NCBI GenBank assembly: GCA_043742785.1 | Contig: JAYTXU010000048.1 | Location: 8,951-72,950 of the forward strand | Direction of reading: 5' to 3' | DNA length: 64,000 nt | From: Candidatus Omnitrophota bacterium | GTDB taxonomy: Bacteria; Omnitrophota; Gorgyraeia; Zapsychrales; Fredricksoniimonadaceae | Shown: piece by piece, positions 3,904 through 27,441 of the stretch | How the letters are laid out: each line of letters begins with the position of its first letter | How positions within the stretch are numbered: position 1 is the stretch's first letter | Program-made: the position numbers and the translations under genes | The notes under the pieces: model-generated | Seen by the model: only the letters and a program-made list of their open reading frames with translations | What the model was told of the DNA's origin: nothing | The model's database searches: none

Positions 3904-4620
3904 TTAAAGATCAATACCAACTAAACTCTTCTTCTGAATAGCCAACAATTCTTTAATACCTTTTTTAGCTAATTTAAGTAAGGACGCCATCTGCATTTCC
4001 GAGAACGTCCCACCTTCACCTGTTCCCTGTACTTCCACAAATTGTCCACGACCTACCATCACAATATTCATATCTACATCCGCTTTAGAATCTTCCGCAT
4101 AATTCAAATCAAGTACAGGCGTCCCTTGAAAAATACCAACACTTATGGCGGCTACATAATCTTTAATTAGTAATTTTTGAATCATCCCCTTCTTCTTCAT
4201 CCAAGTAAGTGCCAACGCTAAAGCAATAAACCCTCCAGTAATCGAAGCGGTGCGAGTGCCTCCATCTCCCTCTAACACGTCGCAATCAATGCGAATTGTA
4301 CGCTCACCTAAAAGCGTCATATCTACAATCGATCTGAGTGAACGACCGATCAAACGCTGAATCTCTTCACTGCGTCCTGAAGTCTTTTCACGTCTAATAC
4401 GGCTTCCACAAGAACGCGGCAGCATCCCATACTCTGCCGTTACCCAACCTTTACCGCTTCCTTTTAAAAATGGAGGAACACCCTCTTCAACAGAAGCAGA
4501 ACAAATCACCTTAGTACTCCCAAATTCAATAAGGCAGGAACCCTCAGCATTTCTCATATAATTGTTGGTAACTTTAATCTTACGCATTTGATCTGGCTTA
4601 CGGCCGTCTAGTCTTTTCAT
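3904..4620 (-). CDS. rph: ribonuclease PH
   Basis: 238 aa with [32 protein letters not shown] and [11 protein letters not shown] motifs. Confidence 0.95.
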
Positions 4621-5043: not shown

Positions 5044-5125
5044 GTCATCCCCCGAATGTTTTAACCTGCCGGCAGGCAGGTCGGGGATCCAGATTCTGGA
5101 TTCCCGCTTTCGCGGGAATGACAAT
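5044..5125. repeat. GC-rich MITE/REP-like element, copy 1 (82 bp), intergenic between queE and queF
   Basis: Near-identical to 7694..7778 in the same orientation. It contains the palindrome CCTGCCGGCAGG and the hairpin ATTCCCGC-TTTC-GCGGGAAT. The ends are imperfect inverted repeats (GTCATCCCCCG / CGCGGGAATGAC). Confidence 0.8.
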
Positions 5126-5130
5126 ATAAA

Positions 5131-5823
5131 TCACCGTAGTTTCATAAATTTGTGAACTTGGGGGAGTATTCTAACGTCTTTGAGAATTTTTGCACATGAT
5201 TTCTGATACCCGACGCACTGTTCAACTATCCCTTTTTTTAAATCTAGATAATTAGGCTGAACAATAAACAAAATCTTAGGATCCACCGATGCCACAAGTT
5301 TTGCAGCTTTTAAAACCTCATCCGCATGCGTCTCTAGCGACACCACCACCTTAATAAACACTTCTTTACTCTTGGCTATCTGCAGAAATTCTTTATGCTC
5401 CTGCCAGTAATTCTTTTGCTTAGTTGACGATGGCAATTTCATATCCATGGCAATAATATCCACATCTTTAATAATGCTTTTTAAAGCAGCGGGCAAGGTG
5501 CCATTGGTATCTAAATAAATTTTCTTTCTTGATATTTTGAGAGCACGACAGAATCCTTTTAAAAAATCCACTTGTATCAAAGGTTCTCCTCCAGTAATGC
5601 TAACTGAATGAACCCCTTCATAAAGCTCCTCAACTTGACTGAGTAAACTTTCTTTTCCTATTTCTTTATACTCACGTTTACCATCCCCGATAGAAGCCGG
5701 AGTATCACACCAAACGCAATGCATATTACACTCAAAGAAACGCACAAAGACTTGGGGGACACCGGCATATTTCCCCTCGCCTTGAATAGATCGAAATATT
5801 TCTAGAATTTTAGCATTCATCAT
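5131..5823 (-). CDS. queE: 7-carboxy-7-deazaguanine synthase (radical SAM)
   Basis: EIFRSIQGEGKYAGVPQVFVRF plus the CNMHCVWCDT cluster motif. The start is moved to the MMNAKILE Met because the upstream 19 codons of the track ORF are translated from a GC-rich palindromic element. Confidence 0.9.
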   Translation of the reverse strand: MMNAKILEIFRSIQGEGKYAGVPQVFVRFFECNMHCVWCDTPASIGDGKREYKEIGKESLLSQVEELYEGVHSVSITGGEPLIQVDFLKGFCRALKISRKKIYLDTNGTLPAALKSIIKDVDIIAMDMKLPSSTKQKNYWQEHKEFLQIAKSKEVFIKVVVSLETHADEVLKAAKLVASVDPKILFIVQPNYLDLKKGIVEQCVGYQKSCAKILKDVRILPQVHKFMKLR

Positions 5824-5835
5824 AATATTCAACCA

Positions 5836-5884
5836 TACGGGCGACCCTCTGTGGCCGCCCTGAGCAGGCACAGGGAACATGCCC
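5836..5884. repeat. GC-rich palindromic element between queC and queE (single copy in this window)
   Basis: It is markedly more GC-rich than its AT-rich flanks. It contains the hairpin GGGCGACC-CTCTGT-GGCCGCCC, and its minus-strand start GTAGGGGCA resembles the element inside leuS. Confidence 0.55.
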
Positions 5885-6544
5885 CTACATTATTAAATCC
5901 TTAACATCTGCTTCTTCAAATCCTTTAGCACGAAACCGGCAGGAATCGCAAACACCACAGGGTTTATTTCCGCCGCTGTAACACGACCATGTCAATTCAA
6001 AAGGAACCTTTAAACTAACCGCTAACTTTACAATCTGCGCCTTAGTCATCCGAATAAGCGGCGTCTGCAAGCGTAAAGCTTTTTTCTCAACACCCGTCTT
6101 TAGACCTTTTGCCAACATAACCTGATAGCTTTTAATAAAATCTGGACGACAATCGGGATAACCAGAATAATCAATAGCGTTGGCACCAATAAATACATCT
6201 CTGGCGCCAATGGCTTCTGCATAAGATGCGGCAAAACTTAGAAAGATAATATTACGTGCAGGCACATAGGTGGCAGGAATTCCCCGTCGAGTCAACGATT
6301 TATTCTTAGGTAAAGAGATATTATCATCTAAAAGCGCCGAACCCTTCCAAGGCAAAGTAATCTTGACCAAAGAATAAGAACATCTTACTTTCTTAGACAA
6401 ACTGACTGCTGATTTTATTTCCCGTAGATGTCGCTGACCATAATCAAAAATAAGACAAGAACACTGATACCCTTTTGCTTTAGCAAAATACAAGGTAGTT
6501 GCAGAATCTAATCCTCCGGATAATAAAACAACGGCTTTATTCAT
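5885..6544 (-). CDS. queC: 7-cyano-7-deazaguanine synthase
   Basis: 219 aa with the PP-loop VVLLSGGLDSATT and the C-terminal Zn-Cys cluster CYSGGNKPCGVCDSCRFR. Confidence 0.95.
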   Translation of the reverse strand: MNKAVVLLSGGLDSATTLYFAKAKGYQCSCLIFDYGQRHLREIKSAVSLSKKVRCSYSLVKITLPWKGSALLDDNISLPKNKSLTRRGIPATYVPARNIIFLSFAASYAEAIGARDVFIGANAIDYSGYPDCRPDFIKSYQVMLAKGLKTGVEKKALRLQTPLIRMTKAQIVKLAVSLKVPFELTWSCYSGGNKPCGVCDSCRFRAKGFEEADVKDLIM

Positions 6545-6901: not shown

Positions 6902-7798
6902 TTAAAAACCCACTCTTTTAACATTTATAACATTGGCCCCTAAAAACCGCACCGCGCGATATTTAAATATCTCCGGCTCATCGCTAACTAAATATAAATG
7001 ATGTGGTGCTTGTTTTTGTTGACGAAGCAACCCTTGTGAAGCCAAGATTTCTTTAACTTCCATAGCTACTTCAAAAGCTGAATCAATAAGAGTAACCTTC
7101 TTACCCATCACCCTAGCGATAGTATTCTTTAAAAGAGGATAATGGGTGCATCCTAGAATTAGAGTATCCACTCCTTCTTTTTTAAAATCACTTAAATACT
7201 CTTTAGCTACGCGATAGGTGATGTCATGATCAAACCATCCCTCTTCGACCAATGGCACAAACAACGGACAAGGCTGGCTTAACACCGATACCTTAGGTTC
7301 AAAACTTTGTAGCCGCTTAGCGTACTTACCGCTTTTAACAGTTGACTGAGTGGCAATAATACCAACTTTTTTTGACTTTGTCGATAGTGCTGCTTTACGA
7401 GCTCCAGGATCGATCACTCCTAAAATTGAAACAGGACATTCCTTTTGTAATACATCCAAAGCTAAACTTGAAGCCGTATTACAAGCCACAACGATCATCT
7501 TGACCTTTTTCTTAAGAAGAATATCAACAATCTCACGAGAATAACGAATAATTGTTTCCCTTGATTTAGTACCATAGGGAACACGTGCAGTATCTCCAAA
7601 ATAGACAATATTTTCCTTAGGTAAGACTTTAAAAAGCTCTTTGACAACGGTTAAACCACCTAAACCAGAATCAAAAACACCAATAGGCCTGCTGTCACCC
7701 TCGAATGTTTTAACCTGCCTGCCGGCAGGCAGGTCGGAGGGTCCATTTTTAGATTCCCGCTTTCGCGGGAATGACAATTTTTTAGGATGTTGAGGCAT
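6902..7798 (-). CDS. murI: glutamate racemase
   Basis: VFDSGLGGLTV, ACNTAS and GCTHYP motifs. The first ~35 codons are translated from repeat copy 2, so the true start is uncertain. Confidence 0.88.
   Translation of the reverse strand: MPQHPKKLSFPRKRESKNGPSDLPAGRQVKTFEGDSRPIGVFDSGLGGLTVVKELFKVLPKENIVYFGDTARVPYGTKSRETIIRYSREIVDILLKKKVKMIVVACNTASSLALDVLQKECPVSILGVIDPGARKAALSTKSKKVGIIATQSTVKSGKYAKRLQSFEPKVSVLSQPCPLFVPLVEEGWFDHDITYRVAKEYLSDFKKEGVDTLILGCTHYPLLKNTIARVMGKKVTLIDSAFEVAMEVKEILASQGLLRQQKQAPHHLYLVSDEPEIFKYRAVRFLGANVINVKRVGF
7694..7778. repeat. GC-rich MITE/REP-like element, copy 2 (85 bp), inside the 5' end of the murI ORF
   Basis: Same family and orientation as 5044..5125. It carries a perfect 22-bp palindrome ACCTGCCTGCCGGCAGGCAGGT and the hairpin ATTCCCGC-TTTC-GCGGGAAT. 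Confidence 0.8.
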
Positions 7799-8819
7799 AG
7801 GCTAAAATACTGCGGACAATGGATTCTGCCAATTTCTGACGATAACTTTCAGAATCTAATCTCTTTTCTTCCTGTTTATTAGTTAAATAACCTGTTTCAA
7901 TGAGAACAGCCGGTATCAAAGTATTACGTACTACAAAATATCTGGCATGACGCGCCCCTCGATTAGGAGCATGCACGGCCAAAGAAACATCATGAACCAG
8001 ACGCATCGCTACCTTAGAAGATTCTGATATTTTAAGTTGATACATCATATCCGATACAATGGGACCAACAACACTCAATGAGCTGGCATTCAGATTCCTT
8101 GCAAATATTTTCTCATTTCTTTGTCTTTGTTCTTCATCCAAATCATGCTTCCCACGAGTTTGAACATAATAAACTTCAATACCTTCCGTTCTACGGTCAG
8201 GCATAGAATTTGCATGAATACTCACAAACAAATCTGCATTAGCTTTAGTTGCAATCTCTGTGCGGCCTGGCAAGGTAATAAACTCGTCGCTATCCCTTGT
8301 CATAACAACTTTTAATCCTGCTTCAGATAAAAGCGTTTTTATTCGCTTAGAAATATCAAAAACAATATCTTTTTCTTTAACCCCTGAGTACCCCTTAGCG
8401 CCTGGATCCTTACCTCCATGACCAGGATCGATCACAATAGTATGCACCTTTAAATTTGAAAGATCTCCTTGAAACCCCCATTTAAACTGCGGGGTTCCAA
8501 TAGTTCCAATCACCTTTAATTCAAAATCATCTGGAACATAAATAGAGCTGCTGACTCGTCGTAGAGGAGCCTCTAGAATAATCTTCTCCTGTCCAATCAA
8601 AACAACAGGGCTTCCTATTAATGCTTTGGCTTTATGATTCTTATATTCAAGAAGAACAACCTGAGTCACACTATCCAATTGCCATTGAATATTATACTTT
8701 TTACAGATATCCTGAAGAGAAACACCAGAAATAATGGTCCCTGGAGGAGTTAACGTATGACAACCGCATATCAACGATACTGCAAAAACCCCTATAAAAA
8801 ATCTAGAAATTATTTTCAT
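7782..8819 (-). CDS. N-acetylmuramoyl-L-alanine amidase (Amidase_3 type), lipoprotein
   Basis: Signal peptide with Cys (VSLICGC). The catalytic domain has VIDPGHGGKDPGA, SIHAN and IETGYLTN motifs. Confidence 0.85.
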   Translation of the reverse strand: MKIISRFFIGVFAVSLICGCHTLTPPGTIISGVSLQDICKKYNIQWQLDSVTQVVLLEYKNHKAKALIGSPVVLIGQEKIILEAPLRRVSSSIYVPDDFELKVIGTIGTPQFKWGFQGDLSNLKVHTIVIDPGHGGKDPGAKGYSGVKEKDIVFDISKRIKTLLSEAGLKVVMTRDSDEFITLPGRTEIATKANADLFVSIHANSMPDRRTEGIEVYYVQTRGKHDLDEEQRQRNEKIFARNLNASSLSVVGPIVSDMMYQLKISESSKVAMRLVHDVSLAVHAPNRGARHARYFVVRNTLIPAVLIETGYLTNKQEEKRLDSESYRQKLAESIVRSILAYASTS

Positions 8820-10501: not shown

Positions 10502-13500
10502 ATGCTTAAAAATAAGGGTCAATCTATTTTTGAATACACCGCTATGGCGATGCTTATCATTGTAGGCGTCATTGTCATGGGACCCTATATTACACGTTCT
10601 TTAGGTGCTCACTTTAAACTTTGGCAAGAATCTGTAGATGATTCTGTCAATGACCGTATGCAAAGCGTTCCAATCAACATCACCCCGGACTGCGTCTGCT
10701 CGGGAGATATTCAAGGTGGCTGCGGCGGCCATTTTCAACGTGAAAATAAAACCTGTGCCCCTAATGAACGTTATCACTCTACTAAATGCAGTCCCCCTGC
10801 TTGCGGATTTGGAGAAGACTTTACTGAAGGATGTACCCCAGATGTTAGTTGTTGTGAAATCTATAATGCCTGTTCTCTCACCACTCCTTTAGCTTCCTGT
10901 TGTGGAACAACACCTTTTCCTGTTCCTGCAGACCCAACAAGAACCAACCCTGATGCTCAAGGATTTCCTCCCATCCCGGGTGCTGATCCTAATTCTCCAG
11001 CAAGTTCTTGTTATTCTGGAGAAGAACTTCTTTACAATCAATGTGATACAACAATAGTCCGTTGTAAACCTAATGCTCAATGCAAGGCCATGTGTACTGG
11101 CAATCTTCCTCATAACCAAAGCGGCGATCTGACAGCAAACCTTTGTCCAGGAGCTGATCAAGGTTTAACTAAAGATACGCCCATTACACTTATAGGAGGG
11201 TGTTCTGTTCCTATATCTACTTGTCCTAAAATAACAGCGCCATCTATTAAAATTCCACAACTATTATCTAGCGGACGGGCCAATCTAACAAAAGTTGCGC
11301 CTTTTTTACTCCCCTTATGCCCAGGAGGTGATAATGGAATTTATCCCACTCAGGCTAATGCTGATCAATTTTGTAAACAGTACTTTAATGCTCCTGATGC
11401 CCAAGCTACAACTTGGCATGGATTTAATTATGATTCTTGTGGAGATAACCCACAAAAAAAAGGAAATGGATCCAGCTGGACATGCACTGTCAATGGTTGC
11501 ACACAAGTAAATAGAGTGCAGTCTATAAAGGATATAACCTGTACCTACTCCAAGTGTTCAACACCCTATACCCTCGTTACTCCCCTCTGTTCAGGGAGTG
11601 AAACAGTTTCCTGTAACAGTGGAGACTCTTTATTTGGCTCTTTAGACACAGGTACAGGGAACAATCATACCATTGCTGTTGATGGCAATACCTGTACAGC
11701 CAGTGAAGGAAATAATAATAATGGTGTCTGTGGTTGTCAAATCACCTGCTCATCTCCTTTTTTAATCACAAAGAAATCTGACTGGAAGGCTCATACCGCT
11801 GTCGGATATGCTTCATCTTATATTTATCTTTCCACACTACCTCCGCAACAATATACCGTTGCAGGACAAGCATTCTCTGTATATGATCCAATCAAGTCAT
11901 ACAGAAATGGTGGAGCCACAGCCATAACAAACCTTAATGCCAACTATCAAACCATTATCCCTTCACTACCTGAAACGCTCATAAAAAACCAAAGTGGGTC
12001 ACGCATAATATTCAATTATGCACAATTAGCTAGTGAATCTCTCGCAACACAACAAGAATTTATTAATAACCTAAAAACCGGTAGTCATGTTATTGCAAAC
12101 CGCTATCTCTGCACTACCAACACCGTAGATGCCCCCGATTGTCATGTCAATAATCGTGGAGCAGATATGCCTGCGTTTGAAATAGACGGACTTTTATATG
12201 ATACCATTCATGATAGCGATACTTATGTCCAATTCGCTGAAGCAGAAACTATAGGGCAATATACCTTATGGGTTGACGGTTGCACAACCTTTAGCACACC
12301 TGGATCAACCAACTGGACAGTTCCTGCTGGAGTAACAAATGCTACTGTTGAAGTTTGGGGCGCTGGCGGCGGTGGTGGTGGTTGGTACGGAGACATTACT
12401 AGCGGTGGTGGTGGTGGTGGTGGTGGTGGTTATTCAAAAGGAACTCTTTCTCTAACCGGCGGAACCACCTACAACATTGTAATAGGCGCTGGAGGACATG
12501 GAGGAGATGCTGTTGCGCCAAGTGATGGTGGAACCAGTTCTTTTAGCCTATCATCCCCCCTACTTCAGGCTAGCGGTGGTCACCATGGTGATTATCAAAG
12601 CTTTGCTATTGGTGATTTTCTTGGAGGTGCTGGTGGTGCAGCTAGTGTAGATAATGCTGTTAGCAATCCTTTTTCCTTATCTGGCTCTCGAGGCAATGAT
12701 GGGATATACGCATGGGGAAATGGCGGTGATGGTGGTAAGGCTGGAGGTTCTGATGGAGGTATTGGCGGAACAGGTGGGCCAGGAGGTGATTTTAATAATG
12801 TTGCTCATGGCGCATACGGTTCTGGTAGTGATGGAACAGCTCCCGGTGGCGGTGGTGGTGGCGGTGGCGGTGATGCAGACATAGGTGGATTAGGTGGCTT
12901 TGGCGCCAATGGAATGGTTAAAATTTGTCCTATTGAAACTCCTGCTCCCTGTACAAACACCTGTCCAGACTATGCTACTGACCCCACAGCGACTAAATGC
13001 GTAGCCAAATGTAACGATGGATATGAAGTAAAAACTGACCTTTCTGGTATTACTTATTGTGCTCCAAGTACTCCAAATGGATGCAATGCTACACCGATAA
13101 CAGCACTAGTGTATCTTTGCGATGACGATTATTACAGTACAGCGTCAGCTTTAGCATCCTTCGGTCATCAATGCATAAGGCCCTCTGACAACGGCGGTAC
13201 TGTGTGCACTTTTGAAGGTAGTCTTTTAGGGAAAGGTGATACAGGAGATACCTGTCCTAATCTTCATAATTTCCCTGTTCCTGTCCAAATAAATGATATC
13301 GTAACCTTAATCAATGGTCTTCAAAATGGTAAGGGAACAGTCATTTTCCGTACCATCAATACCAATATATCTTGTGATATAGCAGCAGGTGAAATTTCTA
13401 TTTCTCTTTCAAAAGGTGTTTTTTCAGGTACTACTGATAGATATAACAGCGCAACACACTCGTTTATAGCCCCATCTAATGGATATCTTATTAATTGTGC

Positions 13501-24969: not shown

Positions 24970-27441
24970 CTAAATAACTATGCTAACAAGTTTATTAGGA
25001 ACGACAATAAATTTCTTAATCGTAGCCCCTTCTAAATAACGAGCAACATTAGTATCTAAAAGGCAAAGCTCTTTAAGTTGTTCTTGTGTAGCAGAAACAG
25101 GGGCAATAAATTGTCCGCGAACCTTCCCATTAATCTGGACGGCGTAATTGACTTCGGATTGTTTAAGAGCTGCTTCATCAAAGGATGGCCAATTAACCTT
25201 ACTGACAGTCGCATCTTTCTTTCCCATCATCTGCCAAAGCTCTTCACTTAAGTGAGGAGTAAAGGGCGCTAATAAAAGCACCAAGGTTTCAATGGCTTGA
25301 TTAAGACTCTTAGTCGATTCTTGCTTATACCTATCGATAGCATTCGCCAAGACCATCATGTGACTGATGGCCGTATTAAACTTCAAACCTTCCTCAAAAT
25401 TCTGAGTAATCTTCTTTATAGCGCTGTTACGTTCACGCTCAAGAGTTTGATCACCACCATCAATTGCCGGCGTTTTCACATAACGCTTCTCAATCATTTG
25501 ATAAATACGATTTAAGAATTTCCAAGCACCTTCCAACCCATCGCTATTCCATTCCAACTGATCTTCAGGAGGGGCAGCAAACAAAATAAATAAACGCAAG
25601 GTATCAGCACCGTATTTACTTAAAACCTCATCCGGATCGACTGTATTACCACGGGATTTAGACATCACTTCCCCATCTTTAAGCACCATTCCTTGAGTAA
25701 GTAAATTCTTAAATGGTTCAGAGAAATCAATCAATCCTAAATCTTTAAAGAACTTAGTAAAAAATCTCGAATACAATAAATGCAAGATAGCATGCTCAAT
25801 CCCACCGATATACTGATCCACTGGCATCCAATATTTCGCATCTGATTTGCTAAAAACTTCTTTAGGGTTATGAGCAGAACAAAATCTTAAAAAATACCAA
25901 GACGAATCAAAAAAAGTAGCCATGGTATCTGTCTCACGACGTGCAGGCTTGAAACATTTTGGACATTTTACATTCACAAATTCAGCCACACGGTTTAATG
26001 GGCTTCCACCCTGGCCGGTGATTTCTACATTCTTAGGAAGCTCTACGGGTAGCTGTTCCATCGGCACTGGCACAACGCCGCAGGCGTCACAATAAATCAT
26101 AGGAATTGGAGCTCCCCAGTAACGCTGACGGGAAATCAACCAATCGCGTAGGCGCCAATGCGTGCTGACCTTACCTATGCCTTCTTTAGACATCCATTGA
26201 GAAATCTTTTCTTTGGCTTCTTCATTAGGCAGTCCATCAAATTGATTAGAATTAACCAAAACCCCTGCATCTTCGTAAGCTTCCGTCATATCATTACCGG
26301 AAATTACAGGATTCTTTGGGTCACTTATAACAATATGTAAGGCAAGCTTATACTGCTTAGCAAATTCAAAATCACGTTGATCATGCGTTGGTACGGCCAT
26401 AATAGCGCCTGTTCCATACTCCATCAGCACATAATCTCCGATATAGATAGGAATCAGCCAACCATTAACCGGATTCACACAGTAGCAGCCTATAAAGACA
26501 CCTTCTTTACGGGCATCACCTGACATGCGCATACTCTTACTTTTGTTGGCAGATTTCTCTACAAATTCTAAAACAGCCTTTTCCTGAGGAGTTCCAGCTG
26601 TTATTTTTCTAACTAAAGGATGTTCGGGAGCTAAAACCACATAGGTAGCGCCAAAAATGGTGTCAGGACGAGTCGTGAAAACCGTAATCACTTCATCTGT
26701 ACGGGAGGGTTTCAAACCCTCCCCTACCTTGACCTTAAAATAAATCTCCACCCCAAAACTTTTCCCAATCCAATTTTCCTGCATGGAACGCACACGAGAG
26801 GGCCAATGATCTAGAAGCTTCAAATCTTCCAAAAGCGCATCCGCATATTGGGTAATCTTCAAATACCATTGATCTAAATCTTTTTGTAAAACTTCTGTTT
26901 TGCAACGCCAACAAGCGCCATCAATAACTTCTTCATTTGCTAAAGTCGTCTGACAACTAGGACACCAATTAACCGAAGAAGCTTTCTTATAGGCCAGCCC
27001 CTGCTCAAACATCTTGATAAAAATCCACTGATTCCATTTATAGTATTCGCTATCGCAGGTTGAGATCTCACGATCCCAATCGTAGGAAAAACCCATCTTC
27101 TTTAATTCATCATGCATCTGTTCAATACAGCGATAGGTCCAATCCGCAGGATTTGTTTTATGTTTAATAGCGGCGTTTTCTGCAGGCTGACCAAAGGCAT
27201 CGTAACCAATTGGATGCAGAACATTAAATCCCTGCATCATCTTGTAACGGGCGATCACATCGCCAATAGTGTAATTACGCACATGGCCCATGTGAATCTT
27301 GCCTGAAGGATAGGGAAACATTTCCAAAACATAATATTTCTTTTTGGAAGAATCCGCTTGGACCTTAAAAGTTTTTTGCGTATCCCAATACTTCTGCCAC
27401 TTGGCTTCAATTTGTTTTATGTCGTTGGTTGTGTAAGGCAT
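24970..27441 (-). CDS. leuS: leucine--tRNA ligase
   Basis: 823 aa with HIGH (HMGHVRNY), the editing-domain motif TTRPDT and KMSKS (VMSKSRGN). Confidence 0.97.
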   Translation of the reverse strand: MPYTTNDIKQIEAKWQKYWDTQKTFKVQADSSKKKYYVLEMFPYPSGKIHMGHVRNYTIGDVIARYKMMQGFNVLHPIGYDAFGQPAENAAIKHKTNPADWTYRCIEQMHDELKKMGFSYDWDREISTCDSEYYKWNQWIFIKMFEQGLAYKKASSVNWCPSCQTTLANEEVIDGACWRCKTEVLQKDLDQWYLKITQYADALLEDLKLLDHWPSRVRSMQENWIGKSFGVEIYFKVKVGEGLKPSRTDEVITVFTTRPDTIFGATYVVLAPEHPLVRKITAGTPQEKAVLEFVEKSANKSKSMRMSGDARKEGVFIGCYCVNPVNGWLIPIYIGDYVLMEYGTGAIMAVPTHDQRDFEFAKQYKLALHIVISDPKNPVISGNDMTEAYEDAGVLVNSNQFDGLPNEEAKEKISQWMSKEGIGKVSTHWRLRDWLISRQRYWGAPIPMIYCDACGVVPVPMEQLPVELPKNVEITGQGGSPLNRVAEFVNVKCPKCFKPARRETDTMATFFDSSWYFLRFCSAHNPKEVFSKSDAKYWMPVDQYIGGIEHAILHLLYSRFFTKFFKDLGLIDFSEPFKNLLTQGMVLKDGEVMSKSRGNTVDPDEVLSKYGADTLRLFILFAAPPEDQLEWNSDGLEGAWKFLNRIYQMIEKRYVKTPAIDGGDQTLERERNSAIKKITQNFEEGLKFNTAISHMMVLANAIDRYKQESTKSLNQAIETLVLLLAPFTPHLSEELWQMMGKKDATVSKVNWPSFDEAALKQSEVNYAVQINGKVRGQFIAPVSATQEQLKELCLLDTNVARYLEGATIKKFIVVPNKLVSIVI
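26699..26727. repeat. 29-bp GC-rich near-perfect palindrome embedded in frame in leuS
   Basis: The minus strand reads GTAGGGGAGGGTTTGAAACCCTCCCGTAC (13 of 14 arm positions pair) and encodes VGEGLKPSR just upstream of TTRPDT. Confidence 0.75.

Follow-up and report, generated by a model that had tools for sequence, protein, structure and literature searches.

A probable GTAG-type REP palindrome in frame within a leucyl-tRNA synthetase gene of an Omnitrophota bacterium

Introduction

Selfish DNA in protein-coding genes has its classic precedent in the Rickettsia palindromic elements (RPEs). They typically sit at surface-exposed positions of the encoded proteins, and to our knowledge they have no association with RAYTs, the tyrosine transposases that accompany repetitive extragenic palindromic (REP) sequences. 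RPE-1, at about 100-150 bp, is much longer than the element that is the subject of this study, a 29-nt palindrome lying in frame within leuS, the gene for leucyl-tRNA synthetase (LeuRS), in a stretch of 64,000 nucleotides from a Candidatus Omnitrophota bacterium (contig JAYTXU010000048.1, positions 8,951 to 72,950; hereafter the window). That in-frame palindromic repeats are tolerated in essential genes was described for the RPEs by Ogata et al. (2000), here as represented in the paper that cites them (PMC3733652). The RPEs are an analogue only of the leuS element: they come from another host lineage and are unrelated in sequence. RPE-4 and RPE-6, the short intragenic repeats of Rickettsia, have been assigned to the CGTC type (PMC3733652), and the leuS element is GTAG-type. 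A literature search for RPEs in aminoacyl-tRNA synthetases returned nothing specific.

Closer in sequence are the REPs of TnpA_REP subclass 2.4, which corresponds to Bertels RAYT group 4 (Quentin, Siguier, Chandler and Fichant, 2018, BMC Genomics 19:475, PMC6006769). According to this survey, the subclass is spread patchily over many phyla, the stems of its REPs start from three G-C pairs at the bottom, and double-foot REPs carry GT[AG]G at the 5' and C[TC]AC at the 3' end and can, in the authors' view, arise from an inverted dimer by central deletion. A hallmark of the subclass is the presence of in-frame REPs inside the tnpA_REP gene itself, between HuH and Y. REPs within RAYT genes and the cross-phylum identity of the 29-nt palindrome were both considered here as possible novelties; for the REPs within RAYT genes the idea was dropped, as the same source already describes them. 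Set against the survey, the leuS element shares the GTAG foot and the three G-C pairs at the stem bottom, with a reverse-complement 3' foot that is one base degenerate, and it also shares the occurrence of singles and inverted doublets in relatives and the patchy spread over many phyla. Unlike the REPs of the survey, which flank the transposase gene or lie inside it, the window copy is intragenic in leuS in a window devoid of a RAYT, and its host phylum, the Omnitrophota, apparently falls outside the survey.

Intragenic REPs of GTAG and CGTC type have been catalogued by Di Nocera, De Gregorio and Rocco (2013, BMC Genomics 14:522, PMC3733652). In their catalogue, in-frame singles or dimers in functional genes code for 7-30 residues; they are enriched in UvrD/Rep helicase and other repair genes, are present in the genes for GlyRS beta and IleRS, and peak in Opitutus terrae, a species of the PVC superphylum. 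The same work reports that GTAG feet often supply TAG stop codons, and that different REPs lie near the same recB site in two Xanthomonas species. As with these intragenic REPs, the leuS element is in frame, lies wholly inside a real protein of more than 120 aa (the 823-aa LeuRS) and is missing from shorter homologues. LeuRS and Omnitrophota are both absent from the catalogue, and the recurrence of inserts at one site, with at least two palindrome families in several lineages at the leuS loop, is stronger than in the recB example (PMC3733652).

Results

The leuS gene spans 24970..27441 on the minus strand as a single, intact open reading frame (ORF) of 823 aa, identified by homology and alignment. 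Its product is a full-length LeuRS of the bacterial type, with Candidatus Omnitrophota metagenome-assembled genomes (MAGs) as the nearest named relatives and T. thermophilus LeuRS (1H3N) as the closest solved structure; the residues that are invariant over 48 aligned LeuRS are present, including M593-S596 of the MSKS loop. The palindrome lies at 26699-26727, where the plus strand reads GTACGGGAGGGTTTCAAACCCTCCCCTAC and the mRNA strand, its reverse complement, GTAGGGGAGGGTTTGAAACCCTCCCGTAC. A repeat search resolves it into two arms of 14 nt each (26699-26712 and 26714-26727), 1 nt apart and 93% complementary: 13 of the 14 arm positions pair, and the sole mismatch is at the position of the second foot. 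The element is in frame and codes for V239-R247 (VGEGLKPSR) plus two bases of T248. Its GC content is 59%, compared with 41% for the whole gene, and the surrounding mRNA has a folding energy of -23.9 kcal/mol (z = -4.0). A sequence-only reading of the window had described a near-perfect 13/14 palindrome coding for VGEGLKPSR, GC-rich in an AT-rich gene and forming a strong hairpin in the mRNA; its coordinates and sequence are exact, and the two other descriptions hold as well. Not one of 100 dinucleotide shuffles of the window yielded a match to the palindrome within 3 mismatches.

On the evidence of its arms, the shuffles and the folding, the 29-nt feature on the minus strand can be written as a double-foot GTAG REP-like palindrome, GTAG / GGGAGGGTTTGAAACCCTCCC / GTAC. 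On the mRNA strand it opens with GTAG, the GT[AG]G foot of double-foot REPs, followed by GGGAGGG. The stem has three G-C pairs at the bottom and a short loop (GGGAGGGTTT / AAACCCTCCC), with a perfect core of 7 bp (GGGAGGG/CCCTCCC) that three further A-T pairs extend to a perfect stem of 10 bp around one central base. At the other end the copy reads GTAC, one substitution off the CTAC of a C[TC]AC foot; apart from this single change in the second foot, it conforms to the sequence definition of a double-foot GTAG REP. We read the GTAC foot as the likely decay of a family member and not as a sign of non-membership. Rfam at its gathering thresholds found no family anywhere in the 64-kb window, and literature searches with the raw DNA or peptide strings of the element gave only irrelevant human and viral matches.

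To place the insert in the protein, an AlphaFold2 model was built on the 48 aligned LeuRS (mean predicted local distance difference test score, pLDDT, 79.8). Two antiparallel strands, 227-239 and 246-256, are predicted to flank a turn at 240-245 (GEGLKP), and because of this arrangement the palindrome-coded peptide is predicted to extend, at its tip, the first beta-hairpin of the CP1 editing domain (residues 227-256, 26674..26763 on the minus strand). The block 241-250 has a pLDDT of 68, lower than the 85 and 87 of the flanking blocks. The editing motif TTRPDT follows 8 residues downstream, so that the insert does lie upstream of it, as previously claimed, though not immediately before it.

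For the best 120 LeuRS homologues, which are 68-100% identical, we compared the linker that joins the conserved FK(V/I) to (I/V)xVFTTRPDT. About 100 of these 120 Omnitrophota proteins have a turn of 6 residues, typically K-D-S-x-E-T (an FKV-K-D-xxE-T linker), and no insert. P0002, P0003 and P0005, which are 82-86% identical to the window LeuRS, do not have the window insert either, and T. thermophilus 1H3N is 8 residues shorter at the same place (FPVE---GK-----EVRIPVFTTRPDT). The window linker reads KVGEGLKPSRTDEV, a net gain of 8 residues over the orthologues. At the DNA level, an empty site such as that of locus L003 has TTT AAG GTG AAG GAT TCA TCG GAA ACG; the filled site in the window has TTT AAG GTC AAG, then the 29-mer, then A GAT GAA GTG. 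In so variable a turn, the exact insertion junction cannot be reconstructed. The idea that the segment is an ancestral, conserved part of LeuRS was rejected, given that most orthologues are without it.

Several orthologues hold other inserts at exactly the same loop, and these are palindromic wherever DNA was available. Single hairpins are found in L004 (GCAGGGGAGGGTTTAAAACCCTCCCCTAC), L005 (GTAGGGGCGGGTTTAAAACCCTCCCCTAC) and L006 (GTAGGGGCAGGTTCCAAACCTGCCAGTAC), and two-hairpin doublets in L001 (59 nt, GTAGGGGCGACCCCCCGTGGTCGCCC-TCAAGAA-GGGCAGGCACAGGGGCCTGCCCCTAC) and L002 (56 nt), both bounded by GTAGGGG...CCCCTAC. P0070 and P0074 share a peptide at the loop that is similar to the window's and is likewise coded by palindromic DNA. 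The closest relative, L127 (P0002, 86% identity), has an unrelated 15-nt palindrome, TCCGCCAAAGGCGGA, which codes for SAKGG. It is a single copy, at the hairpin tip of leuS (814-828 of L127), of the SAxGG-type TCCGCC-NNN-GGCGGA palindrome, and its AAA loop occupies the position of the orthologues' linker lysine codon. Related inserts, of SAKGGSASGGK type, are present at this loop in P0016, P0040, P0044 and P0071. On a rough neighbour-joining tree the GTAG-type inserts fall into at least four clades (P0001; P0004/P0006/P0007; P0070/P0074; P0060). By motif scan and visual inspection of the alignments, about 12 of about 15 palindromic inserts found anywhere in the 120 LeuRS are at this one loop.

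The remaining ones occupy two other variable regions. One is near residue 660, where P0070 and P0074 have a REP (L004 11963-11991 and L005 6075-6103) that is restricted to their clade. This second in-frame site is a variable linker in the C-terminal half of the protein, with the pattern RFD-[A/VS]GAG(V/F)KP(A/S)PT. The other is near residue 780, where P0006 has a TCCGCC tandem; a tandem pair of TCCGCC-NNN-GGCGGA was noted near the 3' end of leuS in L002 (12239-12268).

The leuS copy is identical in 28 of 29 positions to a 29-mer, GTAGGGGNGGGTTTNAAACCCNCCCCTAC, that is known from many genomes, both between genes and in frame within them. In a scan of one genome per species, the pattern was found in at least 120 stretches from more than 10 phyla; among the matches listed are Chloroflexota, Nitrospirota, Desulfobacterota, Actinomycetota, Rubrobacter, Binatia, Patescibacteria, Alpha-, Beta- and Gammaproteobacteria, Planctomycetota, Acidobacteriota, Gemmatimonadota, Cyanobacteria, Bacteroidales and Omnitrophota. 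The dominant form among these matches has C/G at the variable stem pair, and the leuS copy has the A/T form. With a CTAC end, the A/T form is present verbatim in several genomes (in Omnitrophota, L048, L097 and L102). The leuS copy is one base away from the exact variant GTAGGGGAGGGTTTGAAACCCTCCCCTAC, which ends in CTAC and occurs in L008, L009, L047 and L102; L004 likewise holds an otherwise identical copy with an exact CTAC. Around the leuS genes of relatives, GTAGGGG...CCCCTAC singles and doublets occur at 2-6 per 10-22 kb, with intergenic copies in L004 at 4365-4393, 7875-7903 and from 15930 onward.

Real genes of other phyla carry the 29-mer in frame as well: those for a UvrD-like helicase, an MMPL transporter, a Mur ligase, a His_Phos_1 histidine phosphatase and a DUF1015 protein, and CheB, where it lies in the inter-domain linker. 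In-frame copies were also found in UvrD-family helicase genes of L001 (15016-15067) and L002 (15140-15200 and 15668-15722). The UvrD-like helicase with an in-frame 29-mer belongs to a Nitrospirota MAG (L106, 4810-4838), and the repeated decoration of UvrD helicases with REPs is in line with the enrichment that has been published for intragenic REPs of repair helicases (PMC3733652). No target-site duplication flanks the 29-mer across 128 copies (L007-L126); the base at -1 is a pyrimidine in 77% of these copies and the base at +1 a purine in 82%. The lack of a duplication and the Y(-1)/R(+1) flanks appear compatible with transposition of the HUH/Y1 type.

In the relative L002, the gene directly downstream of leuS (12596-13160) codes for a RAYT-like HUH-tyrosine transposase that resembles TnpA_REP subclass 2.4. 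It scores 31.6 bits with Pfam Y1_Tnp (cutoff 23) and 67 bits, in two stretches, with NCBIfam REP_Tyr_transpos (REP-associated tyrosine transposase), the latter short of its cutoff of 80 owing to the split match. An in-frame REP doublet lies right after its HIH motif (12842-12903), and a second doublet overlaps its 3' end (13098-13160). Among 120 randomly sampled loci with the 29-mer, five have a RAYT-like match: L083, L104, L119 and L124 contain near-full-length RAYT-like genes with the 29-mer in frame at the same position after HUH, and L121 has a RAYT-like fragment beside the 29-mer. At this position after HUH, at least 105 of the best 120 RAYT homologues have a length-variable loop of the type VGAGSKPA...AGLEPAPT. 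One possibility to explain the identity of the 29-mer across phyla is its co-transfer with a RAYT that carries it internally.

Discussion

Our data suggest, with a probability that we put at roughly 80%, that the leuS 29-mer is a slightly decayed double-foot GTAG REP of the RAYT/TnpA_REP subclass 2.4 type, tolerated in a turn of LeuRS. Judging by the literature, REP hairpins would be processed as single-stranded DNA by a RAYT, an HUH-tyrosine transposase, which would paste them elsewhere without duplicating the target site. One copy, or a doublet that was later cut down by central deletion, would have entered the LeuRS editing domain at the turn of its first beta-hairpin. The GTA-GGG reading frame avoids the TAG stop, and the exposed turn would accommodate an 8-residue extension (VGEGLKPSR) to an essential enzyme that is otherwise intact; the insert would have survived because the frame is free of stops and the turn is exposed and tolerant of extension. 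In several related lineages the same turn holds REP singles, REP doublets or a short palindrome of an unrelated kind, and it would therefore be the preferred permissive site in LeuRS. A stable hairpin within the leuS mRNA would arise as a by-product. In its present genome the copy is probably an immobile relic, given its mutated foot, the small number of related copies and the lack of a RAYT within 64 kb.

The sequence-only reading had proposed a selfish palindromic element tolerated as a surface-loop insertion, and the checks that it named speak for this proposal. Alignment of orthologues shows the insert to be missing from about 100 of 120 Omnitrophota LeuRS and from T. thermophilus; the structural model puts it at the tip of a beta-hairpin, with lower confidence than its flanks; related palindromes are present once elsewhere in the window, several times per 10-20 kb in relatives and in at least 120 stretches from more than 10 phyla; and a peptide conserved without palindromic DNA was not seen, the similar peptides of P0070 and P0074 being coded by palindromic DNA. 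The labels 'selfish' and 'mobile', for what now looks like a relic, go further and are ones that we infer, and the same holds for mobilisation by a RAYT through single-stranded DNA hairpins, for the neutrality of the insert and for the number of independent insertions.

Several observations do not sit easily with a REP brought in by a RAYT. First, tblastn found no RAYT homologue in the 64-kb window. Second, only two GTAG-type elements are present in it, each with a degenerate foot. The window shows no enrichment of the bare heptamer GTAGGGG (3 occurrences versus 3.4 expected), and the match at 12557 is ordinary coding sequence. Third, the mobility of the REP family is itself deduced. Fourth, the insert is real, but its length does not match the palindrome as had been stated: the net gain is 8 codons (24 nt) and not 9, compared with a palindrome of 29 nt, which excludes a simple, clean insertion: some 5 nt (or two codons) must have been lost from the original turn or replaced. 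Fifth, while the concentration of two palindrome families at one LeuRS loop is best explained by a tolerance filter, it could reflect another cause.

The history, though not the nature, of the element would be different if it goes back to a single, ancient insertion into the loop that was followed by turnover in situ and by repeated, precise loss. Turnover would proceed by gene conversion between REPs via their shared GTAGGGG/CCCCTAC feet, and by central deletions that turn doublets into singles. In favour of this scenario, the right junction is identical in the window, L001, L002, L005 and L006 (CCCCTAC, a purine, GAx), and three different fillings are found within one clade (P0004, P0006, P0007). 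However, it requires many independent, frame-preserving and precise losses, each restoring the K-D-xxE-T linker, in lineages among which the insert-bearing ones are scattered on the tree, and the sister of the window protein has a palindrome of a different family. We consider a single origin unlikely.

If tolerance is not the reason for the concentration of inserts, they may have been selected. An mRNA hairpin at the domain boundary could make translation pause ahead of the folding of the editing domain, or protect against RNases, or the hairpin tip could have a role in interactions with tRNA or in editing. Selection would account for the recurrence of palindromes at one loop, to which about 12 of about 15 such inserts in 120 LeuRS belong, with two unrelated families and at least four clades, and the hairpin is stable (z = -4). 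However, close relatives at 82-83% identity manage without the insert, as do about 100 of the 120 orthologues and T. thermophilus, and the same elements reside in unrelated loops of many unrelated proteins and in intergenic DNA. Moreover, the inserts vary in length (15 to 59 nt) and peptide, and the window copy is decaying, with one mismatched foot. Taken together, these data make a selected feature rather improbable. Low odds are also given to the broader proposal that the hairpin tip is a true insertion hot spot, due to a local feature of DNA or replication, or that the extension or the mRNA hairpin has been selected repeatedly, tuning LeuRS expression or editing. If it were true, that is, if a hot spot draws at least two unrelated families or if selection is at work, REPs would have been put to convergent, function-bearing use in a translation enzyme that is essential.

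An origin on the spot, through template switching or the correction of quasi-palindromes in replication and with a likeness to REPs that is due to chance, could be suggested for the element of the closest relative, where TCCGCC-AAA-GGCGGA brackets an AAA at the linker lysine, but for the window element, which matches at 28/29 positions a sequence that recurs verbatim in many genomes and phyla and for which the shuffles (0/100) leave no expectation of a chance match, it is hardly credible. A mere chance palindrome was also considered and is effectively refuted by the family matches together with the same shuffles.

A REP tolerated in a LeuRS turn, as favoured here, is a kind of element that has already been described, and what is mildly new is confined to the recurrent use of a single loop; existing knowledge of REPs and RAYTs is unchanged by the leuS case. 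What it adds is a clear, well-controlled case in which an essential aminoacyl-tRNA synthetase tolerates a palindrome of REP type, with a series of empty and filled sites across relatives, from a host phylum that has been little studied. Most such insertions in LeuRS are absorbed by the beta-hairpin tip at the entry to the editing domain. For annotation, this means that VGxGxKPxPT or SAxGG segments are not lineage-specific functional motifs. The loop is a natural permissive site of LeuRS that may be of use for protein engineering and also as an evolutionary marker.

Other repeats in the window

The second GTAG-type element of the window is a decayed two-hairpin doublet between queC and queE (5835..5888, minus strand), with a GTAG foot and a degenerate GTAT foot. 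Its hairpins are GGGCATG../..GCCTGC and GGGCGGCC/GGTCGCCC, the same pair in the same order as in the leuS-loop doublet of L001. The leuS palindrome had been likened to an element at 5836-5884; the GTAG-type feet are indeed common to both, but the relationship is at the superfamily level only. The TAG stop codon of queC (5885-5887) comes from the GTAG foot of the doublet. For queE, the longest ORF (start at 5880) runs for 19 codons through the doublet (MFPVPAQGGHRGSPVWLNI...), and for this reason the real start is probably at a pair of Met codons near 5823.

A second, unrelated repeat family is present in two copies that are about 84% identical, at about 5044-5130 and 7693-7780. Of these, one is located downstream of queE, and the other overlaps the 5' end of an ORF at 6902..7798. 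Each contains two GC-rich hairpins, CCTGCC(TGCC)GGCAGG and TTCCCGCTTTCGCGGGAATGAC, of which the latter resembles the CGTC-type REPs that code for 'IPAxAGMT' peptides in Coxiella (PMC3733652, Additional file 3).

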